From positions 2,854,001 to 2,918,000 of the forward strand of contig JASTWF010000033.1 in NCBI GenBank assembly GCA_030390025.1: a stretch of DNA of 64,000 nt. Reading direction: 5' to 3'. This stretch comes from Squalus acanthias. Its lineage: Eukaryota. Within the stretch, counting starts at the first letter, position 1; each line of letters opens with the position of its first letter. Made by a program: the position numbers and the translations under genes. The notes beneath the pieces were generated by a model. The model was not told the DNA's origin. It did not search any database and saw only the letters and a list, made by a program, of their open reading frames with translations. Positions 37,083 through 62,445 of this stretch are shown here, in pieces.

Positions 37083-37334
37083 CATAATGAAATTCAGTGC
37101 TCATGAACCACAGATTCTCAGGGCGGTGTTGGGGGAAGGTGATTAATCAGCACCAAAATAATTAAAGTATTTACAATAACTCTACTTAGAGTAAGAATAA
37201 GTCAATATAGAGAGGATTTGAATACTGTAACACTGCTGTCCTGCTGTTTACCTGTCAGTAATTAGTTAACATCTGTTTCTGTTGGTGCAGTTCAGTAGGA
37301 AACAAAGCATTATCAATGCATTTCAACTTATATA

Positions 37335-38942
37335 TGAACATAAGAACATAAGAAATAGGAGCAGGAGTAGCCCATTCGGCCCCTCGAACCAGCTCCGCCA
37401 TTCAATAAAATCATGGCTGATCATCGACCTCAATAGCCGTTTCCAGCCACTGGGATAGAAACATAGAAAATAGGAGCAGGAGTAGGCCATTCGGCCCCTC
37501 GAGCCTGCTCCGCAATTCAATGCGATCATGGCTGATCATCCAAATTCAGTACCCTGTCCCTGCTTTCTCCCCATATCCCTTGATCACCTTAGCCTTAAGA
37601 AATATAACTAACTCCTTCTTGAATATATTTAATTAATTGGAATCAACTGTCTTCTGTGGTAGAGAATTCCACAGGTTCACCACTCTCTTGGTGAAGAAAT
37701 TCCTCCTCATCTCAAAACTAAATGGCTTACCCCTTATCCTTAGATTGTGACCCCTGGCTCTGGACACTCCCACCATCGGGAACATCCTTCCTGCATCTAG
37801 TCTGTCTAGTCCTGTTAGAATTTTATAAGTTTCAATGAGATCCCCTCTCATTCTTCTAAACTCTAGCGAATACAAGCTCAATCGACCCAATCTCTCTTCA
37901 TACGTCATTCCTGCCATCCCAGGTATCAGCCTGGTGAATCTTCGCTGCACTCTCTCCATGGCAAGAACATCCTTGCTTTGGTAAGGCGACCAAAACTGCA
38001 CACAATATTCAATGTGTGGTCTCACCAAGACCTGTACAACTGCAGCAAGACATCCTTGCTCCTGTACTCGAATCCTCTCGCTATGAAGGCCAACATACCA
38101 TTTGCCTTCTTAACCGCCTGCTGCACCTGCATGCTTACCTTCAGCGACTTGTGCACAAGGACACCCAGGTCTCGTTGCACTTCGCCTTTTCCCAATCTAT
38201 TGCCATTCAGATAATAATCTGCCTTCCTGTTTTTGCCACCAAAGTGGATAACCTCGCATTTATCCACATTATACTGCATCTGCCGTGCATCTGTCCAATC
38301 ACCCAACCTGTCCAAATGATATTGGAGTTTCTCAGCATCCTCCTCACAGCAGACACGCCCACCCAGTTGTGTGTCATCTTCAAACTTAGAGATATTACAT
38401 CTAGTTCCCTCGTCTAGATCATTAATATATATTATGAATAACTGGGGTTCTAGCACGATCCCTTCGGTACCCCACTAGTCACTGCCTGCCACTCGGAAAA
38501 AGTCCCGTTTATTTCAACTCTCTGCTTCCTGTCTGCCAATCAGTTTTCTATCCAAGATAGTACCTTAGCCCCAATCCCGTGTGCTTCAACTTTGCACGCT
38601 AATCTCTTATGCGGGACCTTATCGAAAGCCTTCTGAAATTCCAAATACACTACATCCACTGGTTCTCCCTAATCTATTCTACCAGTTACATCCTCAAAAA
38701 ATTCCAGTAGATTAGTCAAGCATGATTTAACATTTGTAAATCCATGTTGACTTTGTCTGATCCTGTCACTCTTTTCCAAGTGCTCTGCTATTACATCATT
38801 TATTATGGACTCTAGCATTTTGCCCACTACCGATGTCAGGCTTACCGGTCTATAATTCCCCATTTTCTCTCTACCACCTTTTTATAATAGTGGGTTTACA
38901 TTAGCTACCCTCCAATCCATGGGAGCTGTTCCAGAGTCTATA
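37335..38942 (-). mobile_element. 5'-truncated CR1 LINE with doubled 3' UTR/tail
   Basis: RT motifs on minus; two successive aaataggagcaggagtag modules at ~37351 and ~37468. Confidence 0.92.
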
Positions 38943-39170
38943 GGTGTTCCACTCCGGTTAGTGACCTACACTCAGTGCAATTCTACTGTGACAGATACTC
39001 CCAGTAATACAAGGCCACTGGGTTCAGGTGTTCCACTCTGGTTAGTGACCCACACTCAGTAATTCTACAGTGACAGATACTCCCAGTAATACATGGCCAC
39101 TGGGGTCAGGTGTTCCACTCCGGTTAGTGACCCACACTCAGTTCATTTCTACAGTGAGACACCCTTCCAC
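38943..39170. repeat. ~83-bp tandem repeat, ~2.6 copies (mirrored at ~60610-60835)
   Basis: ggtgttccactcyggttagtgacc starts at 38943, 39027 and 39109. Confidence 0.85.
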
Positions 39171-39479
39171 TAATACCTTCTCTCAGAGAGTTCCTTACAC
39201 TGAGGTCTGATTCAACAGTACACAATATTACACGAAAGTCAATAACTACATAACACAGCGAGCCCGTGAGTTACAAACAGAGTTTTACTTTCAGTTGATG
39301 CAATGGAATAAAACCTCAGAAATAATTCAGGTCATTTTTCTAAACGAAATGCTATCACTGATCGGGTAGCTGTATAACGGTGACCACTGGATCAGGATGT
39401 AACATTATCAGTCACAGAGTAAAACCAGAGACCACCTCACACACAGATTTACACAAATTCAATGGTGATAATCACTTAC

Positions 39480-39546
39480 CAGGAACACCAATGGCGGCAA
39501 TGATCATGTAGCACATTTGCTGTGCATGTTCAATTGGCTGAAGCAT
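39480..39546 (-). CDS. GPR139-like GPCR exon 1 (MLQPIEHAQQMCYMIIAAIGVP), predicted to splice to 19244
   Basis: ATG plus 67 nt ending CCTG|gtaagt; the phase-1 join gives ..IGVP-V-NLLAIVILS, restoring TM1. Confidence 0.85.
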
Positions 39547-39610
39547 ATTCTGTGTGAAGCGATGTGTCCCTTCGTGCTGCAGGCAATATCTCTGAATTAT
39601 ACTCTGAGGC

Positions 39611-39638
39611 GGGACATTCCCAGAGCCTTTCATTTATA
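39611..39638 (-). promoter_or_regulatory. Candidate core promoter: TATAAA (39633-39638) and GGGAATGTCCC motif (39611-39621)
   Basis: About 90 bp upstream of the ATG; identical in the paralog (60137-60164). Confidence 0.55.
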
Positions 39639-40066
39639 CCCTGCGGGATATCCACGGGGAGATTGAAGTTGCAACATCGCTGAAAATATTATTTAAAAAA
39701 ACATTTGAACAAACAGATGATGACAGCCGAGTTAATTCCCTGCTGTGATGGAATATATTTAGTGCTGAGATTGAGATTGAAAACCCCAAAGACCGGAGAA
39801 TTCTGGTCACATGAATTAACTAATGACAATTGCCAGCTGTATTCTCCCAGCAATGGGGTTGTTGTTTCAAACACCACCAGGCCCATCTCTAGACCTCATA
39901 TTGTTTCGGTGATGTCCTTCACTCTGCTGTGGCCATTCTGTAATTAAATTCCAAAAGTTAGAGTGTCCTCTCAGGGCTGCTCTGCTGCGCTCTGGGAAGG
40001 GGCTGTCCGCCTTAACTGTGGCCATTTAGTTAAACAAGTAAGTGGTGAATTTGTGTCGATGGATCC

Positions 40067-40810
40067 TCAAACTAATGCAGCCCATCATCTAATACAGTAC
40101 CTCAAACCAATACAGTACATCAAACTAATACAGTACCTGAAACTAATACAGTACCTGAAACTAATACAGCCCCTCAAACAAATGCAGCCCCTCATCTAAT
40201 ACAGTACCTCAAACAAATACAGTACATCAAACTAATACAGTACCTGTAACTAATACAGTACCTGAAACTAATACAGCCCCTCAAACTAATACAGTTCCTC
40301 AAACTAATACAGTTCATCAAACTAATACAGTACCTGAAACTAATACAGTACCTGAAACGAATACAGCCCCTCAAACTAATACAGACCCTCAAACTAATAC
40401 AATACCTCAAACTAATACAGTTCCTCAAACTAATACAGTACCTGAAACTAATACAGTACCTCAAACTAATACAGCTCCTCAAACTAATACAGCCCCTCAA
40501 ACTAATACAGACCCTCAAACTAATACAATACCTCAAACTAATACAGTTCCTCAACCTAATACAGTACATCAAACTAATACAGGACCTGAAACTAATACAG
40601 TACCTGAAACTAATACAGTACCTCAAACTAATACAGCTCCTCAAACTAATACAGCCCCTCAAACTAATGCAGCCCCTCAAACTAATACAGCTCCTCAAAC
40701 TAATACAGCTCCTCAAACTAATACAGCATATCAAACTATTACAAACCATCAAACTAATACAATACCTCAAACTAATACAGCTCCTCAAACTAATACAGTT
40801 CCTTTAACTA
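40067..40810. repeat. 18-bp satellite (ctcaaactaatacagnnc)n, ~41 units
   Basis: Directly visible. Confidence 0.96.
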
Positions 40811-41040
40811 GTAGAAAGACCCACCCACCACCTTTCTGGTGCAAAGTCCTGTAATCTCCTGTTCCCACAAAGTCACAGTGCATGGGATATCACTTGCCAG
40901 ACACCATGAGGTCGTTACCAGGCTAACCGCAACTCATTGTACAGATTATTTGAACAGTTTAACAATGCGAATTCTAAAAATAAATTTAAAAGTCTTGTGT
41001 TTATTTCTGTTAAGTTAGTAATGGTCTATTAAATAAAGGC

Positions 41041-41912
41041 ATGGCAGGGCACCTCATTCCCGTGGAATACACATCTTGTGCCATGTGGGAACTCCAGTCC
41101 ACTTCCCGTGTCCTGGACAATCACATGTGCAGGAAGTGTCGTCAGCTGGAGGAGCTCGAACTCCGGGTTTAGGAGCTTGAACAGCAACTGGCGTCACTGC
41201 GGTGGATCGGTGATACTGAGAACTGCGTGGATCGCATGTTTCAGGAGATGGTTACCCCGCAACCTAAGAATATGCAGGCAGAGAGGGAATGGGTGACCGC
41301 CAGACAGACAAGGTGGACCAGGCAGGTAGTGCAGTAGTCTCCTGAGTGCATCTCACTCTCTAACCGGTATTCAGTGGTACATACTGGAGAGGGAGTTGGT
41401 TCCTCTGGCGAGTACAGCCAGAGCCAAGTCCAGAGCACCAAGGGTGGATCAGCTCTACAGTGGGGGGTGGGGGGGGGGGGGGGGGCGGGGGAGGAGAAAG
41501 ATCAGGAAAGCAATAGTGATCGGGGATTCAATAGTTAGGGGAATAGACAATCGTTTCTGCGGCCGCAGACGTGACTCCATGATAGTATGTTTCCTCCCTG
41601 GTGCCAGGGTCAAGGACTGAAGAACATTCTGAGGGGGGAGGTTAAACAGCCAGAAGTCGTGGTCCATATCGGTACCAATGACATATGTAGAAAGAGGGAT
41701 GACGACCTGCAGGCAGATTTTAGGGAGCTGGGAAAGCGATTAAAATCAGGACCTCAAAGGTAGTAATCTCCGGATTACTCCCAGTGCCTGTGCTGTGAGT
41801 ATAGAAATAGGAGGATAGAGCAGATGAATGAGTGGCTGGAGAGATGGTGCATTAGGGAGTGCTTTAGATTCCTGGGACATTGGGACCGGTTCTCGGGGAG
41901 GTGGGGCCTGTA
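41041..41912 (+). mobile_element. CR1 ORF1 fragment truncated by the satellite
   Basis: SCAMWEL..HMCRKC..LELRV*ELEQQL; AIVIGDSIVRG; FLPGARV; HIGTND. Confidence 0.88.
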
Positions 41913-44900
41913 CAGACTCCGAAAGTTCATTTCACAGATCCAGACAGCTCCATTCACAGACACAGACAGATCCATTCACAGACTCAGACAGCTCCATTCA
42001 CAGACCCAGACAGCAGAATTCACAGACACAGACAGCTCCATTCACTAACCCAGACAGCTCAATTTACAGACTCTCGCAGCTCCATTCACAGAAATAGACA
42101 GCTCCATTCACAGACCCAGACAGCTTCTTTCACAGATCCAGACAGCTCCATTCACAAACCCAGACAGCACCATTTACAGACTCTGGCAGCTCCATTCACA
42201 GACTCAGACAGCTCCAGTCACAGACCCAGACAGCTCATTCACAGACACAGATAGCTCCATTCACAGACCCAGACAACTCCATACACAGACTGAGACAGCT
42301 CCATTTACAGACTCTGGCAACTTCACAATTCACAGACCCAGACAGCTCCATTCACAGACTCAGACAGCTCCATTCACAGACCGAGAAAGCTCCATTCACA
42401 GACCCAGAAAGCTGCATTCACAGACCCAGACAGTGCCATTCACAGACCCAGAAACATAATTTCACAGACCCAGACAGCTCTATACACAGACTCAGAAAGC
42501 TCCATTCTCAGAATCAGACAGCTCCATTCACAGACTCAGACAGCTCCATTCACAGACCCAGACAACTCCATTTTCAGACCCAGACAGCACATTTCACAGA
42601 CCAAGACAGCTCATTCACAGACACAGACAGTTCCATTCACAGATCCGGACAGCTCCATTCACTGACCCAGACAGCTCATTCACCGACACAGATAGCTCCA
42701 TTCACAGACCCAAACAGCACCATTCTCAGACTCAGACATCACCATTCACAGACTCAGACAGCTCCATTCACAGACCCAGAAAGCTCCATTCACAGACCCA
42801 GACAGCTCCATTCACAGACCCAGACAGCTCCATTCACAGACTCTAGCAGCTCCATTCACAGACCCAGACAGCTCGATTCACCGACCCAGACAACTCCATT
42901 CACAGACTCAGACAGCACCATTTACAGACCCAGACAGCTCCATTCAGAGACCCAGACAACTCAATTTTCAGACACAGTCAGCACATTTCACAGACCCAGA
43001 CAGCTCATTCACAGACACAGACAGTTCCATTCACAGACCCAAACAGCACCATTCTCAGACTCAGACAGCTTCATTCACAGACTCAGACAGCTGATTCACA
43101 GACACAGATAGCTCCATTCACAGACCCAAACAGCACCATTCACAGACTCAGACAGCTCCATTCACAGACCCAGACAGCTCCATTTACAGACCCAGACAGC
43201 TCCATTCACAGACACAGACATCTCAATTCACAGACCCAGACAGCTCCATTTACAGACCCAGACAGCTCCATTCACAGATCCAGACAGCTCCATTCACAGA
43301 CTCATTCAGCTTCATTCACGGACCCAAACAGCTCCATTCACAGACCCAGACAGCACATTTCACAAATCCAGACAGCTCCATTCAAAGACACAGACAGCTC
43401 ATTTCATCGACCAACACAGCTCCATTCACAGACCCAGATAGCTCCATTGACGAGAGGTCTTCGACCTGAAACGTTAACTCTGTTTCTCTCTCCACGGATT
43501 GTGCCTGGCCTGCAGAGTTTTCCAGCGTTTTCTGTTGTTAGATTAATTCACAGATTCAGACAGCTCCATTCACAAACTCAGAAAGTTCATTGCAGAGACC
43601 TAGATAGCACCATTCACAGACACAGACAGTTCCATTCACAGACCCAGACAGCTCCATTCACAGACTCCGAAAGTTCATTTCACAGACCCAGACAACTCCA
43701 TTCACAGACCCACACAGCTCCATTTACAGACTCTCTCAGCTCCATTCACAGACATAGACAGCTCCATTCACAGACCCAGACAGCTTCTTTCACAGACCCA
43801 GACAGCTCCATTCACAGACCGAGTCTGCTCCATTTACAGACTCTGGCAGCTCCATTCACAGACCCAGACAACTCCATTCACAGACCCAGAAAGCTGCATT
43901 CACAGACCCAGACAGTGCCATTCACAGACCCAGAATGCTAATTTCACAGACCCAGACAGCTCTATACACAGACTCAGAAAGCACCATTTTCAGAATCAGA
44001 CAGCTCCATTCACAAACTCAGACAGCACCATTTACAGATCCAGACAGCACCATTCACAGACCCCGACAGCTACATACACAGAACCAGACAGCTCCATTCA
44101 CAGACCCAGACACTTCCATTCACAGACTCAGACAGTTCCATTCACAGACCCAGACAGCTCATTCACAGACACAGATAGCTCCATTCACAGACTCAGACAG
44201 CTCTATTCACAGACCCAGACAACTCCATTCACAAACCCAGGCAGCTCCATTCAAAGATTCAGAAAGCTAATTTCACAGACCGAGACAGCTCCATTTAGAG
44301 ACTCAGACAGCTCCATTCACAGACTCAGACAGCTTCATTTAGAGACTCAGACAGCTCCATTCACAGACCCAGACAGCTCCATTTACAGACCCAGACAGCT
44401 CCATTCACAGACACAGACATCTCCATTCACAGACCCAGACAGCTCCATTTACAGACCCAGACAGCTCCATTGACGAGAGTTCTTCGACCTGAAACGTTAA
44501 CTCTGTTTCTCTCTCCACGGATTGTGCCTGGCCTGCAGAGTTTTCCAGCGTTTTCTGTTGTTAGATTCATTCACAGATTCAGATAGCTCCATTCACAGAC
44601 TCAGAAGGTTCATTTCAGAGACCTAGATAGCACCATTCACAGACACAGACAGTTCCATTCACAGACCCAGACTGGCTCCATTTACAGACCCAGACAGCTC
44701 CATTTACAGACTCTGATAGCTCAATTTACAGACCCATGCAGCTCCATTCACAGACCCAGACAACTCATTGCACAGACTCAGTCAGCTCAATTCACAGACC
44801 TTGACATCACAATTCACAGACCCAGACAGCTCCATTCACAGACTCAGACAGCTCCATTCACAGACTGAGAAAGCTCCATTCACAGACCCAGAAAGCTGCA

Positions 44901-47900
44901 TTCACAGACCCAGACAGTGCCATTCACAGACCCAGAAACATAATTTCACAGACCCAGACAGCTCTATACACAGACTCTAAAAGCTCCATTCTCAGAATCA
45001 GACAGCTCCATTCACAGACTGAGACAGCTCCATTTACAGATCCAGACAGCTCCATTCACAGACTCAGACAGCACCATTCACAGACTCAGACAGCTCCATT
45101 CACAGACCCAGACAACTCCATTTTCAGACCCAGACAGCACATTTCACAGACCCAGACAGCTGATTCACAGACACAGACAGTTCCATTCACAGATCCGGAC
45201 AGCTCCATTTACAGACTCAGACAGCTCCATTCACAGACCCAGACAGCTCCATTCACAGACCCAGACAGCTCCATTCACAGACCCAGACAGCTCATTCACC
45301 GACACAGATAGCTCCATTCACAGACCCAAACAGCATCATTCTCAGACTCAGACATCACCATTCACAGACTCAGACAGCTCCATTCACAGACCCAGAAAGC
45401 TCCATTCACAGACCCAGATAGCTCCATTCACAGAACCAGACAGCTCCATTCACAGACCCAGACAGCTCGATTCACCGACACAGACAACTCCATTCACAGA
45501 CTCAGACAGCACCATTCACAGACCCAGACAGCTCCATTCAGAGACCCAGACAACTCCATTTTCAGACACAGACAGCACATTTCACAGACCCAGACAGCTC
45601 ATTCACAGACACAGACAGTTCCATTCACAGACCCAAACAGCACCATTCTCAGACTCAGACAGCTCCATTCACAGACTCAGACAGCTGATTCACAGACACA
45701 GATAGCTCCATTCACAGACCCAAACAGCACCATTCACAGACTCAGACAGCTCCATTCACAGACCCAGACAGCTCCATTTACAGACCCAGACAGCTCCATT
45801 CACAGACACAGACATCTCCATTCACAGACCCAGACAGCTCCATTTACAGACCCAGACAGCTCCATTCACAGACCCAGACAGCTCCATTCACAGACCCAGA
45901 CAGCACATTTCAAAAATCCAGACAGCTCCATTCAAATACACAGACAGCTCATTTCATCGACCAAGACAGTTCCATTCACAGACCAAGATAGCTCCATTGA
46001 AGATAGTTCTTCGACCTGAAACGTTAACTCTGTTTCTCTCTCCACGGATTGTGCCTGGCCTGCAGAGTTTTCCAGCGTTTTCTGTTGTTAGATTAATTCA
46101 CAGATTCAGACAGCTCCATTCACAGACTCAGAAAGTTCATTGCAGAGACCTAGATAGCTCCATTCACAGACACAGACAGTTCCATTCACAGACCCAGACA
46201 GCTCCATTTACAGACCCAGACAGCTCCATTTACAGACTCTGATAGCTCAATTTACAGACCCATGCAGCTCCATTCACAGACCCAGACAACTCACTGCACA
46301 GACTCAGTCAGCTCAATTCACAGACCCTGACATCACAATTCACAGACTCAGACAGCTCCATTCACAGACTCAGACAGCTACATTCTCAGACCGAGAAAGC
46401 TCCATTCACAGACCCAGAAAGCTGCATTCACAGACCCAGACAGTGCCATTCACAGACCCAGAAACATAATTTCACAGACCCAGACAGCTCTATGCACAGA
46501 CTCTAAAAGCTCCATTCTCAGAATCAGACAGCTCCATTCACAGACTCAGACAGCTCCATTTACAGATCCAGACAGCTCCATTCACAGACTCAGACAGCAC
46601 CATTCACATACTCAGACAGCTCCATTCACAGATCCAGACAACTCCATTTTCAGACCCAGACAGCACATTTCACAGACCCAGACAGCTCATTCACAGACAC
46701 AGACAGTTCCATTCACAGATCCGGACAGCTCCATTTACAGACTCAGACAGCTCCATTCACAGACCCAGACAGCTCCATTCACAGACCCAGACAGCTCCAT
46801 TCACAGACCCAGACAGCTCATTCACCGACACAGATAGCTCCATTCACAGACCCAAACAGCACCATTCTCAGACTCAGACATCACCATTCACAGACTCAGA
46901 CAGCTCCATTCACAGACCCAGAAAGCTCCATTCACAGACCCAGATAGCTCCATTCACAGAACCAGACAGCTCCATTCACAGACCCAGACAGCTCCATTCA
47001 CAGACTCTAGCAGCTCCATTCACAGACCCAGACAGCTCCATTCACCGACCCAGACAACTCCATTCACAGACTCAGACAGCACCATTCACAGAACCAGACA
47101 GCTCCATTCAGAGACCCAGACAACTCCATTTTCAGACACAGACAGCACATTTCACAGACCCAGACAGCTCATTCACAGACACAGACAGTTCCATTCACAG
47201 ACCCAAACAGCACCAGTCTCAGACTCAGACAGATCCATTCACAGACTCAGACAGCTGATTCACAGACACAGATAGCTCCATTCACAGACCCAAACAGCAC
47301 CATTCACAGACTCAGACAGCTCCATTCACAGACCCAGACAGCTCCATTTACAGACTCAGACAGTTCCATTCACAGACTCAGACAGCTCTATTCACAGACC
47401 CAGACAACTCCATTCACAAACCCAGGCAGCTCCATGAAAAGATTCAGAAAGCTCATTTCACAGACCGAGACGGCTCCATTTAGAGACTCAGACAGCTCCA
47501 TTCACAGACTCAGACAGCTTCATTTAGAGACTCAGACAGCTCCATTCACAGACCCAGACAGCTCCATTTACAGACCCAGACAGCTCCATTCACAGACACA
47601 GACATCTCCATTCACTGACCCAGACAGCTCCATTTACAGACCCAGACAGCTCCATTCACAGACCCAGACAGCTCCACTCACAGACTCAGTCAGCTTCATT
47701 CACGGACCCAAACAGCTCCATTCACAGACCCAGTCAGCACGTTTCACAAATCCAGACTGCTCCATTCAAAGACACAGACAGCTCATTTCATCGACCAAGA
47801 CAGCTCCATTTACAGACCCAGACAGCTCCATTGACGAGAGTTCTTCGACCTGAAACGTTAACTCTGTTTCTCTCTCCACGGATTGTGCCTGGCCTGCAGA

Positions 47901-50900
47901 GTTTTCCAGCGTTTTCTGTTGTTAGATTCATTCACAGATTCAGACAGCTCCATTCACAGACTCAGAAAGTTCATTTCAGAGACCTAGATAGCACCATTCA
48001 CAGACACAGACAGTTCCATTCACAGACCCAGACAGCTCCATTCACAGACTCTAGCAGCTCCATTCACAGACCCAGACAGCTCGATTCACCGACCCAGACA
48101 ACTCCATTCACAGACTCAGACAGCACCATTCACAGAACCAGACAGCTCCATTCAGAGACCCAGACAACTCCATTTTCAGACACAGACAGCACATTTCACA
48201 GACCCAGACAGCTCATTCACAGACACAGACAGTTCCATTCACAGACCCAAACAGCACCAGTCTCAGACTCAGACAGCTCCATTCACAGACTCAGACAGCT
48301 GATTCACAGACACAGATAGCTCCATTCACAGACCCAAACAGCACCATTCACAGACTCAGACAGCTCCATTCACAGACCCAGACAGCTCCATTTACAGACT
48401 CAGACAGTTCCATTCACAGACTCAGACAGCTCTATTCACAGACCCAGACAACTCCATTCACAAACCCAGGCAGCTCCATGAAAAGATTCAGAAAGCTCAT
48501 TTCACAGACCGAGACGGCTCCATTTAGAGACTCAGACAGCTCCATTCACAGACTCAGACAGCTTCATTTAGAGACTCAGACAGCTCCATTCACAGACCCA
48601 GACAGCTCCATTTACAGACCCAGACAGCTCCATTCACAGACACAGACATCTCCATTCACTGACCCAGACAGCTCCATTTACAGACCCAGACAGCTCCATT
48701 CACAGACCCAGACAGCTCCACTCACAGACTCAGTCAGCTTCATTCACGGACCCAAACAGCTCCATTCACAGACCCAGTCAGCACGTTTCACAAATCCAGA
48801 CTGCTCCATTCAAAGACACAGACAGCTCATTTCATCGACCAAGACAGCTCCGTTTACAGACCCAGACAGCTCCATTGACGAGAGTTCTTCGACCTGAAAC
48901 GTTAACTCTGTTTCTCTCTCCACGGATTGTGCCTGGCCTGCAGAGTTTTCCAGCGTTTTCTGTTGTTAGATTCATTCACAGATTCAGACAGCTCCATTCA
49001 CAGACTCAGAAAGTTCATTTCAGAGACCTAGATAGCACCATTCACAGACACAGACAGTTCCATTCACAGACCCAGACAGCTCCATTCACAGACTCCGAAA
49101 GTTCATTTCACAGACCCAGACAACTCCATTCACAAACACAGACAGCTCCATTTCCAGACCCAGACAGCTGCATTTACAGACTCAGACAGCTCAATTCACA
49201 GACACAGACAGCTCCAATCACCGACCCAGATAGCTACATTCACAAACCTTGACAGCACCATGCAAAGACCCAGACAACTCCATACACAGACTGAGACAGC
49301 TCCATTTACAGACTCTGGCAGCTCCATTCAGGACATAGACAGCTCCATTCACAGACCCAGACAGCTTCTTTCACAAACCCAGACAGCTCCATTCACAGAC
49401 CGAGTCAGCTCCATTTGCAGACTCTGGCAGCTCCATTCACAGACTCAGACAGTTCCATTCACAGACCCAGTCAGCTCATTCACAGACACAGATAGCTACA
49501 TTCAAAGACTCAGACAGCTCTATTCACAGACCCAGAGAGGTCCATTCATAGACCCAGACAACTCCATACAAAGACTGAGACAGCTCCATTTACAGACTCT
49601 GGCAGCTCCATTCACAGACACAGACAGCTCCATCACAGACTCAAACAGCTCCATTTACAGACCCTAACAGCTCCATTTACAGACCCAAATGGCTCCATTT
49701 ACAGACTCTGACAGCTCAATTCACAGACCCATGCAGCTCCATTCGCAGACACAGATAGCTCCATTCACAGACACAGACAACTCCATACACAGACCCAAAC
49801 AGCTCCATTCACAGACCCAGACAGCTCCATTTACAGACTCTGACAGCTCAATTCACAGACACATGCAGCTCCATTCACAGACCCAGACAACTCATTGCAC
49901 AGACTCAGTCAGCTCAATTCACAGACCCTGACATCGCAATTCACCGACCCAGACAGCTTCATTCACAGACTCAGACAGCTCCATTCACAGACCCAGACAG
50001 CTCCATTCACAGACCCCGAAAGCTGCATTCACAGACCCAGACAGTGCCATTCACAGACCCAGAAAGCTAATTTCACAGACCCAGACAGCTCTATACACAG
50101 ACTCAGAAAGCTCCATTCTCAGAATCAGACAGCTCCATTCACAAACTCAGACAGCACCATTTACAGATCCAGACAGCTCCATTCATAGGCTCAGACAGCA
50201 CCATTTACAGATCCAGACAGCACCATTCACAGACCCCGACAGCTCCATACACAGACCCAGACAGCTCAATTCACAGACACAGACACTTCCATTCACAGAC
50301 TCAGACAGTTCCATTCACAGACCCAGACAGCTCATTCACAGACACAGATAGCTCCAGTCACAGACTCAGACAGCTCTATTCACAGACCCAGACAGCTCCA
50401 TTCACAGATCCAGACAACTCCAGACACAGACTGAGACAGCTCCATTTACAGACTCTGGCAGCTCCATTCACAGACTCAGACAGCTCCATCACAGACTCAA
50501 ACAGCTCCATTTACAGACCCTAACAGCTCCATTTACAGACCCAAATGGCTCCATTTACAGACTCTGACAGCTCAATTCACAGACCCATGCAGCTCCATTC
50601 GCAGACACAGATAGCTCCATTCACAGACACAGACAACTCCATACACAGACCCAAACAGCTCCATTCACAGACCCAGACAGCTCCATTTACAGACTCTGAC
50701 AGCTCAATTCACAGACACATGCAGCTCCATTCACAGACCCAGACAACTCATTGCACAGACTCAGTCAGCTCAATTCACAGACCCTGACATCGCAATTCAC
50801 CGACCCAGACAGCTTCATTCACAGACTCAGACAGCTCCATTCACAGACTCAGACAGCTCCATTCACAGACCCCGAAAGCTGCATTCACAGACCCAGACAG

Positions 50901-53900
50901 TGCCATTCACAGACCCAGAAAGCTAATTTCACAGACCCAGACAGCTCTATACACAGACTCAGAAAGCTCCATTCTCAGAATCAGACAGCTCCATTCACAA
51001 ACTCAGACAGCACCATTTACAGATCCAGACAGCTCCATTCATAGGCTCAGACAGCACCATTTACAGATCCAGACAGCACCATTCACAGACCCCGACAGCT
51101 CCATACACAGACCCAGACAGCTCAATTCACAGACACAGACACTTCCATTCACAGACTCAGACAGTTCCATTCACAGACCCAGACAGCTCATTCACAGACA
51201 CAGATAGCTCCAGTCACAGACTCAGACAGCTCTATTCACAGACCCAGACAGATCCATTCACAGATCCAGACAACTCCAGACACAGACTGAGACAGCTCCA
51301 TTTACAGACTCTGGCAGCTCCATTCACAGACTCAGACAGCTCCATCACAGACTCAAACTGCTCCATTTACAGACCCAGACAGCTCCATTCACAGGCCCAG
51401 ACAGCTCCAGTCACAGACCCAGACAGTTCAATTCACAAACCCAAACATCTCCATTCACAGACTCAGACAGCTCCATTCACAGACCCAGACAGCTCCATTC
51501 ACAGACTCAGACAGCTCCATTCACAGACTCAGACAGCTCCATTCACAGACACAGACAGCTCCATTCACAGACCCAAACAGCACCAGTCACAGACACAGTC
51601 AGATCCATTCAGAGACTCAAACAGCTCCATTCACAGACCCAGACAGCTCATTCACAGACACAGATGGCTCCATTCACAAACCCAAACAGCTCCATTCACA
51701 GACTCAGACAGCTCCATTCACAGACCCAGAAAGCTCCATTCACAGACTCAGACAAATCCATTCACAGACCCAAACAGCTCAATTTACAGACCCTGTCAGC
51801 TCCATTTACAGACTCAGACTGCTCCATTCACATACTCAGACAGCTCCATTCACAGACCCAGACAACTCCATTTTCAGACCCAGACAGCACATTTCACAGA
51901 CCCAGACAGCTCATTCACAGACACAGACAGTTCCATTCACAGATCCGGACAGCTCCATTTACAGACTCAGACAGCTCCATTCACAGACCCAGACAGCTCC
52001 ATTCACAGACCCAGACAGCTCCATTCACAGACCCAGACAGCTCATTCACCGACACAGATAGCTCCATTCACAGACCCAAACAGCACCATTCTCAGACTCA
52101 GACATCACCATTCACAGACTCAGACAGCTCCATTCACAGACCCAGAAAGCTACATTCACAGACCCAGATAGCTCCATTCACAGAACCAGACAGCTCCATT
52201 CACAGACCCAGACAGCTCCATTCACAGACTCTAGCAGCTCCATTCACAGACCCAGACAGCTCGATTCACCGACCCAGACAACTCCATTCACAGACTCAGA
52301 CAGCACCATTCACAGAACCAGACAGCTCCATTCAGAGACCCAGACAACTCCATTTTCAGACACAGACAGCACATTTCACAGACCCAGACAGCTCATTCAC
52401 AGACACAGACAGTTCCATTCACAGACCCAAACAGCACCAGTCTCAGACTCAGACAGCTCCATTCACAGACTCAGACAGCTGATTCACAGACACAGATAGC
52501 TCCATTCACAGACCCAAACAGCACCATTCACAGACTCAGACAGCTCCATTCACAGACCCAGACAGCTCCATTTACAGACTCAGACAGTTCCATTCACAGA
52601 CTCAGACAGCTCTATTCACAGACCCAGACAACTCCATTCACAAACCCAGGCAGCTCCATGAAAAGATTCAGAAAGCTCATTTCACAGACCGAGACGGCTC
52701 CATTTAGAGACTCAGACAGCTCCATTCACAGACTCAGACAGCTTCATTTAGAGACTCAGACAGCTCCATTCACAGACCCAGACAGCTCCATTCACAGACC
52801 CAGACAGCTCCATTTACAGACCCAGACAGCTCCATTCACAGACACAGACATCTCCATTCACTGACCCAGACAGCTCCATTTACAGACCCAGACAGCTCCA
52901 TTCACAGACCCAGACAGCTCCACTCACAGACTCAGTCAGCTTCATTCACGGACCCAAACAGCTCCATTCACAGACCCAGTCAGCACGTTTCACAAATCCA
53001 GACTGCTCCATTCAAAGACACAGACAGCTCATTTCATCGACCAAGACAGCTCCATTTACAGACCCAGACAGCTCCATTGACGAGAGTTCTTCGACCTGAA
53101 ACGTTAACTCTGTTTCTCTCTCCACGGATTGTGCCTGGCCTGCAGAGTTTTCCAGCGTTTTCTGTTGTTAGATTCATTCACAGATTCAGACAGCTCCATT
53201 CACAGACTCAGAAAGTTCATTTCAGAGACCTAGATAGCACCATTCACAGACACAGACAGTTCCATTCACAGACCCAGACAGCTCCATTCACAGACTCCGA
53301 AAGTTCATTTCACAGACCCAGACAACTCCATTCACAAACACAGACAGCTCCATTTCCAGACCCAGACAGCTGCATTTACAGACTCAGACAGCTCAATTCA
53401 CAGACACAGACAGCTCCAATCACCGACCCAGATAGCTCCATTCACAGACTCAGACATTTCCATTCACAGACCCAGTCAGCTCATTCACAGACACAGATAG
53501 CTACATTCACAGACCCAGACAGCACCATGCAAAGACCCAGACAACTCCATACACAGACTGAGACAGCTCCATTTACAGACTCTGGCAGCTCCATTCATAG
53601 ACATAGACAGCTCCATTCACAGACCCAGACAGCTTCTTTCACAAACCCAGACAGCTCCATTCACAGACCGAGTCAGCTCCATTTACAGACTCTGGGTGCT
53701 CCATTCACAGACTCAGACAGTTCCTTTCACAGACCCAGTCAGCTCATTCACAGACACAGATAGCTACATTCACAGACTCAGACAGCTCTATTCACAGACC
53801 CAGAGAGGTCCATTCATAGACCCAGACAACTCCATACAAAGACTGAGACAGCTCCATTTACAGACTCTGGCAGCTCCATTCACAGACACAGACAGCTCCA

Positions 53901-54116
53901 TCACAGACTCAAACAGCTCCATTTACAGACCCTAACAGCTCCATTTACAGACCCAAATGGCTCCATTTACAGACTCTGACAGCTCAATTCACAGACCCAT
54001 GCAGCTCCATTCGCAGACACAGATAGCTCCATTCACAGACACAGACAACTCCATACACAGACCCAAACAGCTCCATTCACAGACCCAGACAGCTCCATTT
54101 ACAGACTCTGACAGCT
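41910..54116. repeat. 22-bp satellite (cagacagctccattcacagacy)n, >12 kb, with higher-order blocks
   Basis: Directly visible; block duplications with periods of 1044 bp (47434/48478) and 856 bp (49689/50545). Confidence 0.97.
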
Positions 54117-54616
54117 NNNNNNNNNNNNNNNNNNNNNNNNNNNNNNNNNNNNNNNNNNNNNNNNNNNNNNNNNNNNNNNNNNNNNNNNNNNNNNNNNNNN
54201 NNNNNNNNNNNNNNNNNNNNNNNNNNNNNNNNNNNNNNNNNNNNNNNNNNNNNNNNNNNNNNNNNNNNNNNNNNNNNNNNNNNNNNNNNNNNNNNNNNNN
54301 NNNNNNNNNNNNNNNNNNNNNNNNNNNNNNNNNNNNNNNNNNNNNNNNNNNNNNNNNNNNNNNNNNNNNNNNNNNNNNNNNNNNNNNNNNNNNNNNNNNN
54401 NNNNNNNNNNNNNNNNNNNNNNNNNNNNNNNNNNNNNNNNNNNNNNNNNNNNNNNNNNNNNNNNNNNNNNNNNNNNNNNNNNNNNNNNNNNNNNNNNNNN
54501 NNNNNNNNNNNNNNNNNNNNNNNNNNNNNNNNNNNNNNNNNNNNNNNNNNNNNNNNNNNNNNNNNNNNNNNNNNNNNNNNNNNNNNNNNNNNNNNNNNNN
54601 NNNNNNNNNNNNNNNN
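54117..54616. other. Assembly gap (500 N)
   Basis: Run of N between two different satellites. Confidence 1.
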
Positions 54617-57600
54617 TTTGAGGGCTGTATTAGTTTGAGGGGCTGTATTAGTTTGAGGGGCTGTATTAGTTTGATGGGCTGTATTGGTTTGAGGAGCTGT
54701 ATTAGTTTGAGGGTCTGTATTAGTTTGAGGCGCTGTATTAGTTTGAGGTACTGTATTAGCTTGAGGTAGTGTATTAGTTTGAGGGGCTGTATTAGTTTGA
54801 GGGGCTGTATTAGTTTGATGGGCTGTATTGGTTTGAGGAGCTGTATTAGTTTGAGGGTCTGTATTAGTTTGAGGTACTGTATTAGTTTGAGGTACTGTAT
54901 TAGCTTGAGGTAGTGTATTAGTTTGAGGGTCTGTATTTGTTTGAGGTGCTGTATTAGTTTGAGTAGATATAATAGTTTGAGGGTCTGTATTATATTTAGG
55001 TACTGTATTAGTTTGAGGGGCTGTATTAGTTTGAGGGGCTGTATTAGTTTGAGGGGCTGTATTAGTTTGAGGAATTGTATTAGTTTGAGGTTCTGTATTA
55101 TTTTGAGTTACTTTATTAGTTTGAGATACTGTATTAGATTGAGGGGCTGTATTAGATGGAGGGGCTGTATTAGATTGAGGGGCTGTGTTAGTTTCAGTGG
55201 CTGTATTAGTTTGAGGAGCTGTATTAGTTTGAGTGGCTGTATTAGTTTGAGGGGCTGTATTAGTTTGTGAGGCTGTATTAGTTTGAGGGGCTGTATTAGT
55301 TTCAGGTATTGTATTCGTTTGAGGAGCTGTATTAGTTTGAGGGTCTGTATTAGTTTGAGGGGCTGTGTTATTTTGAGAGCTGTATTAGTTTGAGGGGCTG
55401 TATTAGTTTGAGGTACTGTATTAGTTTGAGTAGTTATAATAGTTTGAGGGTCTGTATTATATTTAGGTACTGTATTAGTTTGAGGGGCTGTATTAGTTTG
55501 AGGGGCTGTATTAGATTGAGGGGCTGTATTAGATGGAGGGGCTGTATTAGATTGAGGGGCTGTGTTAGTTTCAGTGGCTGTATTAGTTTGAGGTGCTGTA
55601 TTAGTTTGAGGGGCTGTATTGGTTTTAGGTACTGTATTAGTTTGAGGAGCTGTATTAGTTTGAGGTGCTGTATTAGTTTGAGGGGCTGTATTGGTTTGAC
55701 GTACTGTATTCGTTTGAGGAGCTGTATTAGTTTGAGGGGCTGTATTAGTTTGAGGAGCTGTATTAGTTTGAGGTACTGTATTAGTTTGAGGAGCTGTATT
55801 AGTTTGAGGTACTGTATTAGTTTGAGGAGCTGTATTAGTTTTGGAGGCTTTATTATTTTGAGGGGCTTTATTAGTTTGAGGTACTGTATTAGTTTGAGGT
55901 ACTGTATTAGTTTGAGGTGCTGTATTATTTTGATTTGCTGTATTAGTTTGAGGTGCTGTATTAGTTTGAGGAGCTGTATTAGTTTGAGGGGCTGTAATAG
56001 TTTGAGGGGCTGTATTGGTTTGAGGAGCTGTATTAGTTTGAGGGTCTGTATTAGTTTGAGGGTCTGTATTAGTTTGAGGCGCTGTATTAGTTTGAGGTCC
56101 TGTATTAGTTTGAGGTGCTGTATTAGTTTGAGGTGCTCTATTATTTTGAGGTACTGTATTAGTTTGAGGTGCTGTATTAGTTTGAGGGGCTGTATTAGTT
56201 TGAGGTACTGTATTAGTTTGAGGTACTGTATTAGTTTGAGGTGCTGTATTAGTTAGTGGGTCTGTATTAGTTTGAGGGTCTGAATTAGTTTGAGGGACTG
56301 TATTAGTTTGAGGGTCTGTATTAGTTTGAGGGAGTGTATTAGTTTGAGGTACTGTATTAGTTTGAGGGTCTGTATTCGTTTCAAGTACTGTATTAGTTTG
56401 AGGGGCTGTATTATTTTGAGAGCTGTATTCGTTTGAGTGGCTGTATTACTTAGAGGTACTGTATTAGTTTGAGGTACTGTATTAGTTTGTGAGGCTGTAT
56501 TAGTTTGAGGGGCTGTATTAGTTTGAGGGGCTGTATTATTTTGTGGGGCTGTATTAGTTTGAGGGTCTCTATTAGTTTGAGGGTCTGTATTAGTTTGAGG
56601 AGCTGTATTAGTTTGAGGTACTGTATTAGTTTGAGGTGCTGTATTAGTTTTAGGAGCTGCATTAGTTTGAGGTACTGTTTTAGCTTGAGGTACTGTATTA
56701 GTTTGAGGGTCTGAATTTTTTTGAGGTGCAGTATTAATTTGAGGTACTGTATTAGCTTGAGGTGCTGTATTTGTTTGAGGGTCTGTATTAGTTTGAGGGG
56801 CTGTATTCGTATGAGGTACTGTATTAGTTTGAGGTACTGTATTAGTTTGAGGTGCTGTATTAGTTTGAGGTACTGTATTAGCTTGAGATACTGTATTAGC
56901 TTCAGGTAGTGTATTAGTTTGAGGGTCTGTATTTGTTTGAGGTGCTGTATTAGTTTGAGGGGCTGTATTAGTTTGAGGAGCTGTATTAGTTTGAGGAGCT
57001 GTATTTGTTTGAGCGGCTGTATTAGTTTGAGGGGCTGTATTAGTTTGAGGGGCTGTATTAGTTTGAGGGGCTGTATTAGTTTGAGGAATTGTATTAGTTT
57101 GAGGTTCTGTATTATTTTGAGTTACTTTATTAGTTTGAGATACTGTATTAGATTGAGGGGCTGTATTAGATGGAGGGGCTGTATTAGATTGAGGGGCTGT
57201 GTTAGTTTCAGTGGCTGTATTAGTTTGAGGGGCTGTATTAGTTTGTGAGGCTGTATTAGTTTGAGGGGCTGTATTAGTTTCAGGTATTGTATTAGTTTGA
57301 GGAGCTGTATTAGTTTGAGGGTCTGTATTAGTTTGAGGGGCTGTGTTATTTTGAGAGCTGTATTAGTTTGAGGGTCTGTATTAGTTTGAGGGTCTGTATT
57401 AGTTTGAGGGGCTGTATTAGTTTGAGGGTCTGTATTAGTTTGAGAGCTGTATTAGTTTGAGTGGCTGTATTAGTTTGAGGGGCTGTATTAGTTTGTGAGG
57501 CTGTATTAGTTTGAGGGGCTGTATTAGTTTCAGGTATTGTATTAGTTGGAGGAGCTGTATTAGTCTGAGGGGCTGTATTAGTTTGAGGGGCTGTATTAGT

Positions 57601-59712
57601 TTGAGGGGCTGTATTAGTTTGATGGGCTGCATTGGTTTGAGGAGCTGTATTAGTTTGAGGGTCTGTATTAGTTTGAGGCGCTGTATTAGTTTGAGGTCCT
57701 GTATTAGTTTGAGGTGCTGTATTAGTTTGAGGTGCTGTATTAGTTTGAGGTACTGTATTAGTTTGAGGTACTGTATTAGCTTGAGATACTGTATTAGCTT
57801 CAGGTAGTGTATTAGTTTGAGGGTCTGTATTTGTTTGAGGTGCTGTATTAGTTTGAGGGGCTGTATTAGTTTGAGGGGCTGTATTAGTTTGAGGTACTGT
57901 ATTAGTTTGAGTAGTTATAATAGTTTGAGGGTCTGTATTATATTTAGGTACTGTATTAGTTTGAGGGGCTGTATTAGTTTGAGGGGCTGTATTAGTTTGA
58001 GGGGCTGTATTAGTTTGAGGAATTGTATTAGTTTGAGGTTCTGTATTATTTTGAGGTACTTTATTAGTTTGATATACTGTATTAGATTGAGGGGCTGTAT
58101 TAGATGGAGGGGCTGTATTAGATTGAGGGGCTGTGTTAGTTTCAGTGGCTGTATTAGTTTGAGGTGCTGTATTAGTTTGAGGGGCTGTATTGGTTTTAGG
58201 TACTGTATTAGTTTGAGGAGCTGTATTAGTTTGAGTTGCTGTATTAGTTTGAGGGGCTGTATTGGTTTGACGTACTGTATTCGTTTGAGGAGCTGTATTA
58301 GTTTGAGGGGCTGTATTAGTTTGAGGAGCTGTATTAGTTTGAGGTACTGTATTAGTTTGAGGAGCTGTATTAGTTTGAGGTACTGTATTAGTTTGAGGAG
58401 CTGTATTAGTTTTGGAGGCTTTATTATTTTGAGGGGCTTTATTAGTTTGAGGTACTGTATTAGTTTTAGGCACTGTATTAGTCTGAGGTACTGTATTTGT
58501 TTGAGGGGCTGTATTAGTTTGAGAGGCTCTATTAGTTTGAGGTACTGTATTAGTTTGAGGTGCTTTATTAGTTTGAGGGGCTGTATTAGTTTGAGGTGCT
58601 GAATTATTTTGAGGTACTGTATTAGTTTGAGGTGCTGTATTAGTTTGAGGGGCTGTATTAGTTTGAGGTACTGTATTAGTTTGAGGTACTGTATTAGTTT
58701 GAGGTGCTGTATTAGTTAGTGGGTCTGTATTAGTTTGAGGGTCTGAATTAGTTTGAGGGACTGTATTAGTTTGAGGGTCTGTATTAGTTTGAGGGAGTGT
58801 ATTAGTTTGAGGTACTGTATTAGTTTGAGGGTCTGTATTAGTTTCAGGTACTGTATTAGTTTGAGGGGCTGTATTATTTTGAGAGCTGTATTAGTTTGAG
58901 TGGCTGTATTAGTTTGAGGTACTTTATTAGTTTGAGGTACTGTATTAGTTTGTGAGGCTGTATTAGTTTGAGGGGCTGTATTAGTTTGAGGGGCTGTATT
59001 ATTTTGTGGGGCTGTATTAGTTTGAGGGTCTGTATTAGTTTGAGGGTCTGTATTAGTTTGAGGAGCTGTATTAGTTTGAGGTACTGTATTAGTTTGAGGT
59101 GCTGTATTAGTTTTAGGAGCTGCATTAGTTTGAGGTACTGTATTAGCTTGAGGTACTGTATTAGTTTGAGGGTCTGAATTTTTTTGAGGTGCAGTATTAA
59201 TTTGAGGTACTGTATTAGCTTGAGGTGCTGTATTTGTTTGAGGGTCTGTATTAGTTTGAGGGGCTGTATTCGTATGAGGTACTGTATTAGTTTGAGGTAC
59301 TGTATTAGTTTGAGGTGCTGTATTAGTTTGTGGGTCTGTATTAGTTTGAGGGGCTGTATTAGTTTGAGGGACTGTATTAGTTTGAGGTACTGTATTAGTT
59401 TGAGCTTCTGTATTAGTTTGAGGGTCTGTATTAGTTTTATGTGTTATATTAGTTTGAGAGCCTGTATTAGTTTGAGGGGCTGTATTAGTTTGAGGGGCTG
59501 GATTAGTTTCAGGTACTGTATTAGTTTCAGTTACTGTATTAGTTTGATGTACTGTATTAGTTTCAGGTACTGTATTAGTATGATGTAATGTATTAGTTTG
59601 AGGGGCTGTATTAGTTTCAGGTACTGTATTAGTTTCAGGTACTGTATTAGTTTGATGTACTGTATTAGTTTCAGGTACTGTATTAGATGAGGGGCTGCAT
59701 TAGTTTGAGGAT
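54617..59712. repeat. 18-bp satellite (gnnctgtattagtttgag)n, ~280 units; reverse complement of the 40067-40810 family
   Basis: Directly visible. Confidence 0.97.
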
Positions 59713-60228
59713 CCATCGAGACAAATTCACCACTTTCATTGCTTAACTAAATGGCCTCAGTTAAGGCGGACAGCCCCATCCCAGAGTGGAGCAGAGCAGC
59801 CCTGAGAGGACACTCTAACTTTTGGAATTTAATTAATGAATGGCCACAGCAGAGCATAGGACTTCACCGAAACAATATGAGTTCTGCAGATGGGTCTGGT
59901 GGTGTTTGCAACAACAACCCCATTGCTGGGAGAATACAGCTGGCAATTGTCATTAGTTAATTCATGTGGCCAGAATTCTCCGGTCTTTGGGGTTTTCAAT
60001 TTCAATCTCAGCACGAAATATATTCCATCACAACAGGGAATTAACTCGCCTGTCGTCATCTGTTTGTTCAAATGTTTTTTTAAATAATATTTTCAGCGAT
60101 GTTGCAATTCAATCTCCCCGTGGATATCCCGCAGGGTATAAATGAAAGGCTCTGGGAATGTCCCGCCTCAGAGTATAATTCAGATTGATTGCCTGCAGCA
60201 CGAAGGGACTCATCGCTTCACACAGAAA

Positions 60229-60295
60229 ATGCATCAGCCAATTGAGGGTATCATGAAAATATGTTTTGTGATCATTGCCGTCATTGGTGTTCCTG
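60229..60295 (+). CDS. Exon 1 of a paralogous GPR139-like GPCR (MHQPIEGIMKICFVIIAVIGVP); exon 2 is not in the window
   Basis: ATG, 67 nt, CCTG|gtaagt donor; TATAAA at 60137-60142. Confidence 0.8.
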
Positions 60296-60834
60296 GTAAG
60301 TGATTATAACCATTGAAGTTGTGTAAATCTGTTTGTGAGCTGGTCTCTGGTTTTGCTCTGTGACTGATAATGTTGCATCCTGATCTATTGGTCACCGTTA
60401 TACAGACACCCGATCAGTGATAACATTTCGTTTAGACAAATGTCCTGAATTATTTCTGAGGTTTTATTCCATTGCCTCAACTGAAAGTAAAACTCTGTTT
60501 GTAACTCACGGGCTCGCTGTGTTATGTAGTTATTGACTTTCGTGTAATATTGTGTACTGTTGAATCAGACCTCAGTGTAAGGAACTCTCTGAGAGAAGGT
60601 ATTGGTGGAAGGGTCTCTCACTGCAGAACTACTGAGTGTGGGTCACTAACCAGAGTGGACAACAGCTGACCCCAGTGGCCATGTATTACTGGGAGTATCT
60701 GTCACTGTAGAATTACTGAGTGTGGGTCACTAACCGGAGTGGGACACCTGACCCCAGTGGCCATGTATTACTGGGAGCATCTGTCACTGTAGAATTGCAC
60801 TGAGTGTAGGTCACTAACTGGAGTGGAACACCTA

Positions 60835-62445
60835 TAGACTCTGGAACAGCTCCCATGGATTGGAGGCTAGCTGATGTAACCCCACTATTATAAAAAGTTG
60901 GTAGAGAGGAAATGGGGAATTAGAGACCGGTAAGCCTGACATCTGTAGTGGGGAAAATGCTAGAGTCCATTATAAAAGATGTAATAGCAGAGCACTTGGA
61001 AAACAGTGACAGGATCAGACAAAGTCAACATGGATTTACAAAAGTTAAATCATGCTTGACTGATCTACTGGAATTTTTTGAAGATGTAACTGGTAGAATA
61101 GATTAGGGAGAACCAGTGGGTGTAGTGTATTTGGAATTTCAGAAGGCTTTCGATAAGGTCCCGCATAAGAGATTAGCGTGCAAAGTTAAAGCACACGGGA
61201 TTGGGGGTAAGGTACTGTCTTGGCTAGAAAACTGATTGGCAGACAGGAAGCAGAGAGATGAAATAAACGGGACTTTTTCCGAGTGGCAGGCAGTGACTGG
61301 TGGGGTACCGCAGGGATCGGTGCTAGAACCCCAGTTATTCACAATATATTTTAATGATCTAGACGAGGGAACTAGATGTAATATCTCTAAGTTTGAAGAT
61401 GACACACAACTGGGTGGGCGTGTGTGCTGTGAGGAGGATGCAGATAAACTCCAGTATGATTTGGACAGGTTGGGTGATTGGACAGATGCACGGCAGATGC
61501 AGTATAATGTGGATAAATGCGAGGTTATCCACTTTGGTGGCAAAAACAGGAAGGCAGATTATTGACTGAATGGAAATAGATTGGGAAAAGGCGAGTGCAA
61601 CGAGACCTGGGTATCCTTGTGCACAAGTCGCTGAAGGTAAGCATGCAGGGGCAGCAGGCGGTTAAGAAGGGAAATGGTATGTTGGCCTTCATAGCGAGAG
61701 GATTCGAGTACAGGAGCAAGGATGTCTTGCTGCAGTTGTACAGGGCCTTGGTGAGACCACACATTGAATATTGTGTGCAGTTTTGGTCGCCTTATCAAAG
61801 GAAGGATGTTCTTGCCATGGAGAGAGTGCAGCGAAAATTCACCAGACTGATAACTGAGATGGCAGGAATGACGTATGAAGAGAGATTGGGTCGATTGAGC
61901 TTGTATTCGCTAGAATTTAGAAGCATGAGAGGGGATCTCATTGAAACTTATAACATTCTAACTGGACTAGACAGACTAGATGCAGGAAGGATGTTCCCGA
62001 TGGTGGGGGAGTCCAGAACCAGGGGTCACAATCTAAGGATAAGGGGTAAGCCATTTAGGTTTGAGATGAGGAGGAATTTCTTCACCCAGAGAGTGGTGAA
62101 CCTGTGGAATTCTCTACCACAGAAGACAGTTGATACCAATTCATTAAATATATTCAAGAAGGAGTTAGTTATATTTCTTAAGGCTAAGGTGATCAAGGGA
62201 TATGGGGAGAAAGCAGGGACAGGGTACTGAATTTGGATGATCAGCCATGATCGCATTGAATGGCGGAGCAGGCTCGAGGGGCCGAATGCCTACTCCTGCT
62301 CCTATTTTCTATGTTTCTATCCCAGTGGCAGGAAACGGCTATTGAGGTCGATGATCAGCCATGATTTTATTGAATGGCGGAGCTGGTTCGAGGGGCCGAA
62401 TGGGCTACTCCTGCTCCTATTTCTTATGTTCTTATGTTCATATAT
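60835..62445 (+). mobile_element. CR1 LINE (duplicate of 37335-38942)
   Basis: RT motifs and the same doubled 3' tail. Confidence 0.92.

Follow-up and report, generated by a model that had tools for sequence, protein, structure and literature searches.

A sharply bounded 23-nt divergent patch in the first coding exon of two duplicated shark receptor genes, with short gene conversion as the favoured explanation

We analysed a 64,000-nt window of Squalus acanthias DNA (assembly GCA_030390025.1, contig JASTWF010000033.1, positions 2,854,001 to 2,918,000 of the forward strand) that contains two copies, A and B, of the first coding exon of a G-protein-coupled receptor (GPCR) gene, one in each arm of an inverted duplicate. 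The two copies differ at 14 of 23 nt within a patch covering codons 6–14 and are about 4% apart elsewhere. We consider, with moderate confidence, that import of the patch from a third paralog by short gene conversion is the best explanation. The exons and the patch lie as follows:

39480–39546, minus strand: first coding exon of copy A, comprising 22 codons and 1 nt ahead of a phase-1 donor; annotated relatives have the same 22–23-residue start and junction.
39507–39529, minus strand: divergent patch in A (exon nt 18–40, codons 6–14); 14/23 nt differ from B.
60229–60295, plus strand: first coding exon of copy B; open frame, intact donor.
60246–60268, plus strand: divergent patch in B; a contig from another sequencing run, X13, shares B's letter at 11/14 patch sites (hand count).

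Divergence of the first exons

Both exons are 67 nt long and end at identical GTAAGT donors. They differ at 16/67 nt (binomial P = 9e-9 against a background of 4.1%) and in 9 of 22 residues, with codons 6 and 12 differing only synonymously. Fourteen of the 16 differences sit in exon nt 18–40, with no indel between A and B, and the best 30-nt window holds 14 mismatches, compared with a maximum of 10 across 10,000 permutations. The patch is sharp-edged, without a significant shoulder: the 5′ flank has 29/517 differences and the intron 143/3700 (P = 0.07). The intron is the better yardstick, the upstream sequence being non-neutral and conserved among sharks. Outside the patch, A–B divergence is even at 4% along 4.3 kb, and long identical runs are not in excess. 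Counted from N1.50, codons 6–14 correspond to the predicted top of transmembrane helix 1 (TM1, positions 1.32–1.40), with about five residues ahead of them, and the predicted model of a relative has a helix at residues 2–31 (low confidence, mean predicted local distance difference test score, pLDDT, 56). Positions 1.35–1.39 border the minor pocket in peptide receptors.

These results confirm all exon counts of the preliminary description, as well as its statement that exon 1 is far more divergent than the adjoining intron (16/67 vs 14/300, with the permutation maximum exceeded). Its placing of the clustered changes holds for codons 6–14 and is corrected for the "extracellular N-terminus", the codons being those of the top of TM1. 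It had also given about 14 differences in the first 300 intron nt, ending in an identical stretch; we find 14/300 (4.7%), including a 127-nt identical run of unremarkable length. This run was considered as a conversion tract and rejected, being at chance level (permutation mean longest run 129 nt). A 14-nt inverted repeat that overlaps B's patch was considered as a source of template switching and likewise rejected (AT-rich, 158 nt away, mostly family-typical sequence).

Silent and replacement differences

By the Nei–Gojobori method, A and B differ at 4/14 synonymous sites (P = 0.002 against background) and 12/49 non-synonymous sites (P = 5e-7), giving a ratio of non-synonymous to synonymous divergence (dN/dS) of ~0.8. 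All four synonymous differences are in codons 6–14, among ~4.3 synonymous sites there. The earlier remark that only two codons differ purely synonymously is thus correct as a count and understates the silent change (four differences per 14 sites). Under selection on point mutations, silent divergence would be expected to stay near 4%; since silent sites are raised, the patch looks older than its flanks. Diversifying selection, which the preliminary description had read from this pair, is not borne out by it, dN/dS being 0.8 with synonymous sites raised too.

Contigs from other sequencing runs

Contigs from 4 of the 24 listed runs were aligned on positions 59930–60600, and letters were counted by hand from 40 of the 227 rows listed; these 40 rows cover all differences of two contigs, 18 for the contig from run X20 and 7 for one contig from run X13. 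None of the listed runs is on record as RNA; the X13 and X20 runs are guessed to be RNA and are possibly DNA. The X13 contig differs from B at 3/67 exon sites (3 non-synonymous, 0 synonymous) and at 4/77 upstream sites. The X20 contig has 13/67 exon differences from B and 10/67 from A (9 non-synonymous, 1 synonymous), and shares A's letter at 8/14 patch sites. Seven patch sites (2 synonymous) group A and X20 against B and X13, and 0/77 upstream sites are informative (Fisher P = 1e-5).

A and B have the same letter at four flank sites (59970, 60125, 60536 and 60541), where the contigs of two further runs, X1 and X2, show it in a minority or not at all. The flanks thus group A with B, whereas the patch sets the two apart, a pattern that points to a mosaic rather than to an assembly error. 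In X1 and X2, the summed depth of contigs falls over 60229–60274, between two high-depth stretches, which fits family-wide variability there, depth being a weak measure with other dips elsewhere. B's letter at 60266 occurs in neither X1 nor X2, and these runs are therefore without copy B itself.

The receptor family

Copy A can be followed into a second exon:

18259–19244, minus strand: second exon of copy A; joined to exon 1 at a junction inferred from relatives, it completes a 350-residue open frame that reads as a class A GPCR.
19245–39479, minus strand: 20.2-kb intron of A, filled with pieces of the long interspersed nuclear element (LINE) type and satellites.

Gene A is a predicted class A (rhodopsin-like) GPCR that matches Pfam 7tm_1 with 65.5 bits (cut-off 30.5). 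It keeps N1.50, D2.50, DR, the cysteines of 3.25 and extracellular loop 2 (C3.25/ECL2), P5.50 and W6.48, and lacks the usual prolines at 6.50 and 7.50. In TM3, residue 94 is G (D in 94/103 family rows) and residue 98 is C (W in 99/103), and the C-terminal tail is ~25 residues longer than in most relatives. A fold search with the predicted model of a relative (mean pLDDT 56) returned generic peptide-receptor matches only.

A search with exon 2 found 2517 protein clusters at E 1e-20 or better among 6114 candidates, in agreement with the expanded orphan receptor family proposed earlier; among the best 120 clusters, the 119 that are named all come from sharks and rays. Shark and ray models called "probable G-protein coupled receptor 139" (Pristiophorus japonicus P0005–P0014, Heterodontus francisci P0016) are mostly 70–79% identical to A exon 2 and share with A the 22–23-residue first coding exon and its junction; these RefSeq/UniRef models are automatic annotations only. 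Gene A is placed inside the elasmobranch "probable GPR139" clade with a support of 100/99 in a 27-row tree that omits GPR139 and GPR142. Coelacanth, salamander and teleost "probable GPR139" proteins (P0286, P0287, P0292, P0314) fall outside this clade in the tree, and score 110–175 bits vs 58 for human GPR139 (10 of 150 rows looked up). The sequences suggest an old vertebrate lineage that was expanded in elasmobranchs.

Human GPR139 (PDB 7VUG/9M42; PMC8807744) is the best solved-structure match of the family profile, with 57.9 bits vs 43.6 for the ghrelin receptor, and has 27.6 bits to gene A alone; because these matches are weak, the label "GPR139" does not denote orthology. The pocket positions of human GPR139 align with those of the family, in which they vary and copies are many, and the positions equivalent to its pocket residues E3.32, F3.33, R6.51 and N7x38 are among the family's fastest. 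By sequence comparison, the family is only distantly like human GPR139, with less similarity and pocket conservation than would be asked of orthologs. In passages of PMC8557429, GPR139/142 form the sister group of protostome receptors whose peptide ligands end in aromatic amides, and Table 1 of PMC5207463 has an "Orphan 139-like" group, given there without sequences or detail.

Variability across the family

Variability was expressed as amino-acid rates in a set of automatic gene models chosen by similarity. Proteins with a recognisable first exon were kept, i.e., 102/176 in a first set and 148/245 in a larger set, which together with gene A makes 149. Of the 40 sites with the highest rates in the larger set, 38 belong to the extracellular half, including seven in exon 1 (sites 2, 3, 4, 6, 7, 9 and 14). 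Mean rates are 1.68 in codons 6–14 and 0.45 in codons 15–22; the remaining extracellular sites average 1.24 and the intracellular half 0.40. Of the GPR139 agonist pocket positions given in passages of PMC8807744, 8/14 are fast vs 16/185 other helix positions (P = 3e-5; P = 0.018 vs extracellular halves only), with a mapping that rests on sequence numbering and a hidden Markov model alignment. A separate list of 28 pocket positions gives 11/28 fast vs 13/171. The apparent course of fast sites along the pocket face of a near-invariant scaffold favours selection. The preliminary description expected a chemosensory or immune-type receptor; the variability pattern (hypervariable pocket face, conserved scaffold) is like that of such receptors, and the function itself would have to be read from that pattern.

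Exchange among paralogs

Among 28 independent close protein pairs of the family, codons 6–14 differ at 19/252 residues vs 207/8260 in exon 2, and none of the 28 pairs has a significant patch like that of A and B. Seven differing residues out of nine would be unlikely even at three times the family rate (rough P = 0.001–0.01) and are typical only of paralogs 20–30% apart in exon 2. We also applied a neighbour-site compatibility test of our own design to 28 sequences from Pristiophorus, 39 from Heterodontus and 19 from Mobula; neighbouring sites were more compatible than expected without recombination, the observed value being reached in 4, 0 and 2 of 500 no-recombination simulations, respectively. 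This suggests that exchange among paralogs occurs, without marking out exon 1 as special. Shuffling of exon 1 against exon 2 was considered in view of Pristiophorus pairs with 0–1 exon-1 vs 16–21% exon-2 differences, and was set aside as not clearly above the signal within exon 2.

Explanations for the patch

Under the favoured explanation, A and B would be young duplicates of one receptor gene, ~4% apart. After the duplication, a tract of ~23–35 nt over codons 6–14 of one copy would have been overwritten from a more distant family paralog, replacing the two uppermost turns of TM1, with their silent sites, in a single event. The amino-acid rates of the family are highest on its extracellular face and ligand pocket, most likely through selection for new ligand specificities, and conversion among many paralogs would supply ready-made variants, as in genes of the major histocompatibility complex (MHC). 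Going by the pattern alone, the most likely ligands are diverse small molecules or peptides of external or non-self origin. Patchwise gene conversion, the other cause named in the preliminary description, is the likelier one for this pair in view of the sharp patch, the raised silent sites, the discordant grouping of patch and flanks, and the recombination signals in three genera. As in MHC-type short-tract exchange, a clustered tract, raised synonymous divergence and discordant grouping are found together.

An opsin-type divergence peak, in which A and B are older than they seem, mutual conversion has homogenised their flanks and selection has kept the patch different, is unlikely. It also predicts raised synonymous divergence in the patch and patch types common to other organisms, as with X13 and X20, and inverted pairs are generally held to favour conversion; yet the edges of the patch are sharp and shoulderless, the 4% divergence is even over 4.3 kb without an excess of long identical runs, and the A/B adjacency crosses an assembly gap. 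Passages of PMC3924837 describe this model. Episodic positive selection on point mutations since the duplication, with silent changes due to chance, multi-nucleotide mutations or hitch-hiking, we regard as quite unlikely. The dN/dS of 0.8, the change of 4 of the ~4.3 synonymous sites in codons 6–14, the changes at the slow family sites 11 and 13, and the lack of a comparable patch in the 28 close pairs all count against it, whereas the 12/49 differing non-synonymous sites (P = 5e-7), the prevalence of replacements between B and the X13 contig (3 non-synonymous, 0 synonymous) and between A and the X20 contig (9 and 1), and the presence of codons 6, 7 and 9 among the family's fastest sites would all be expected from it.

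The patch would be uninformative on new function if A and B were haplotypes of one locus across the gap, or if B were a fragment without exon 2 that carries a neutral conversion tract. The 500-N gap between A and B agrees with this, as do the rare residues of B (G7 in 0/102, M9 in 2/102 and F13 in 2/102 proteins), the fact that exon 2 of B is not seen (it would sit ~16 kb beyond the window if the intron were equally long) and the lack of a contig spliced to family exon 2 among the contigs examined. We nevertheless hold it improbable: 4.4% over 4.3 kb of mostly LINE DNA is higher than we would expect of alleles, B has an intact frame and donor, and a B-like exon occurs under another organism label. 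An assembly or base-calling error, finally, is very improbable. The region is satellite-rich and beside a gap, and the X1 and X2 contigs lack B's letter at 60266, but independent contigs share 11/14 patch letters with B and 8/14 with A (hand count), there is no indel, and both peptides are family-typical at most sites.

Several observations weigh against conversion from a third paralog, or against the role of the family that goes with it. The "synonymous" difference in codon 6 may reflect two independent changes of a third codon, the one with the commoner letter in X1 and X2; if it is discounted, synonymous differences fall to 3/14 (P = 0.018). A has ~6 private non-synonymous changes (P = 0.0007 vs half the background), which suggests that selection acted as well, and in a four-sequence tree the non-synonymous changes (17/49) stand against 4/14 synonymous ones at a ratio of 1.2 (P = 0.76). 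Our home-made recombination test gives a signal that coevolving neighbours could mimic; an earlier, normalised test was mostly non-significant (1/6 below 0.05), and discordance in exon 1 does not clearly exceed that in blocks of exon 2 (fractions 0.05, 0.21 and 0.71). At the level of the family, a stricter cut in the larger set puts 6/14 pocket positions in the top 40, amino-acid rates do not separate selection from relaxed constraint, and TM1 is outside the GPR139 pocket residue list in passages of PMC8807744.

Sequence upstream of the first exon

60133–60134, plus strand (counterpart 39642–39641, minus strand): candidate splice acceptor AG, 95 nt ahead of the ATG, where the X13 and X20 contigs part from the genomic sequence.
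60142–60228, plus strand (in A 39633–39547, minus strand): in-frame open extension of 29 codons before the main ATG, with its own ATG at 60142; 5/87 nt differ between A and B.

Upstream of the candidate acceptor, the X13 and X20 contigs carry related sequences, and the "first" exon could be an internal exon in some transcripts, if the X13 and X20 runs are RNA. The candidate acceptor (60133–60135) stands just before a TATA-like word, which may be exonic in some transcripts. A search of the window for the putative upstream exon gave three weak matches vs 3.9 expected and one unrelated short-motif match. Text similar to the 29-codon extension occurs in 7/405 fetched proteins; one Mustelus model starts at the same methionine, and a Heterodontus model matches it at 85% identity over 27 residues. 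At the other end of the exon, the X20 contig departs at the donor (60295–60297) into a sequence other than family exon 2, perhaps a cryptic exon. A metagenome pattern scan for the exon end returned three matches, all three unrelated.

The inverted duplicate and its surroundings

The window is repeat-rich vertebrate DNA, and the closest named relatives of the receptor are shark proteins. Its other features are:

35775–40798: left arm of the inverted duplicate (blastn).
58958–64000: right arm of the inverted duplicate (blastn), reaching the window end.
40089–40799: 18-bp satellite upstream of A, ~40 copies (Tandem Repeats Finder, TRF).
54617–59710: ~283 copies of the 18-bp satellite, upstream of B and mirror-oriented, up to the gap (TRF and blastn).
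54117–54616: assembly gap of 500 N between A and B (sequence).
20903–24764, 41931–54116 and 13773–14090: large satellites of 18, 22 and 19 bp, respectively, with long open frames in several phases.
171–3224, minus strand: broken open frames resembling a long terminal repeat (LTR) retroelement; one has an integrase zinc-binding domain, the others have no Pfam match.
7084–7184, minus strand: decayed, isolated 100-nt fragment of another family exon 2, 83% identical to A exon 2.

Self-comparison pairs 35775–40798 with 64000–58958, the right arm running off the window end. The arms are 94% identical across 5049 blastn columns, with mismatches at 189/4305 aligned nt (4.4%). Each arm has the same order of an 18-bp satellite array, ~520 nt of unique upstream DNA, the 67-nt coding exon and a LINE-filled intron start. 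The 18-bp satellite directly upstream of A and B is identically oriented relative to the gene. Between the arms are a 12-kb 22-bp satellite and the 500-N gap (54117–54616), because of which the adjacency and head-to-head orientation of A and B are unproven. Each arm (35590–38943; 60832–64000) also contains two LINE pieces in opposite orientation that are ~90% alike, and a weaker second cluster of mismatches with the left arm lies at 63875–63908 (8 in 30 nt, LINE sequence, inside the permutation range). The long open frames in the 18-, 22- and 19-bp satellites are most likely a by-product of satellite sequence.

Relation to known receptor repertoires and gene conversion systems

Our search found no publication on the elasmobranch "probable GPR139" expansion or its variability, subscription literature being mostly outside its reach. 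The family is unmentioned in the portion of PMC12294341 that we covered. For cartilaginous fishes, passages of the whale shark genome paper (PMC8455134) report a relative paucity of GPCRs and few olfactory receptors, and passages of a catshark paper (PMC11979771) give 2 canonical and 6 OR-like genes, "GPR" being absent from its main text except within "GPCR". We put forward, as a tentative possibility, that the "probable GPR139" genes may be an unrecognised, very large shark and ray repertoire for smell, taste or immune recognition, with a ligand face diversified by selection and MHC-like short-patch exchange, of which A/B would be a fresh swap. If this is true, the view of cartilaginous fishes as poor in GPCRs and odorant-type receptors would need revision.

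Like the vertebrate odorant receptors, the family of gene A belongs to class A, is large and expanded within its lineage, and combines a variable pocket face with a conserved intracellular face; it differs in being closer to the GPR139/FMRFamide-receptor-like group and in having a coding intron. The exon-5 peak of red/green opsins (passages of PMC3924837) and the ATP1A1 paralogs of Leptodactylus (passages of bioRxiv 10.1101/2020.08.04.234435) are, like A and B, close duplicates with an exon more divergent than the non-coding flanks; in contrast to these, the A/B peak is 23 nt long and sharp-edged, and its flanks are 4% apart rather than near-identical. Gene conversion in MHC and immunoglobulin genes (passages of PMC3924837 and PMC12431779) likewise involves a short clustered tract that includes silent sites, a family of many paralogs and a recognition surface, whereas A/B is a class A GPCR pair with a putative tract. 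Short-tract conversion and divergence peaks in multigene families are already known from passages of these three sources (PMC3924837, PMC12431779, bioRxiv 10.1101/2020.08.04.234435); the patch is an instance of a known process, and most of the interest lies in the family-wide pattern.

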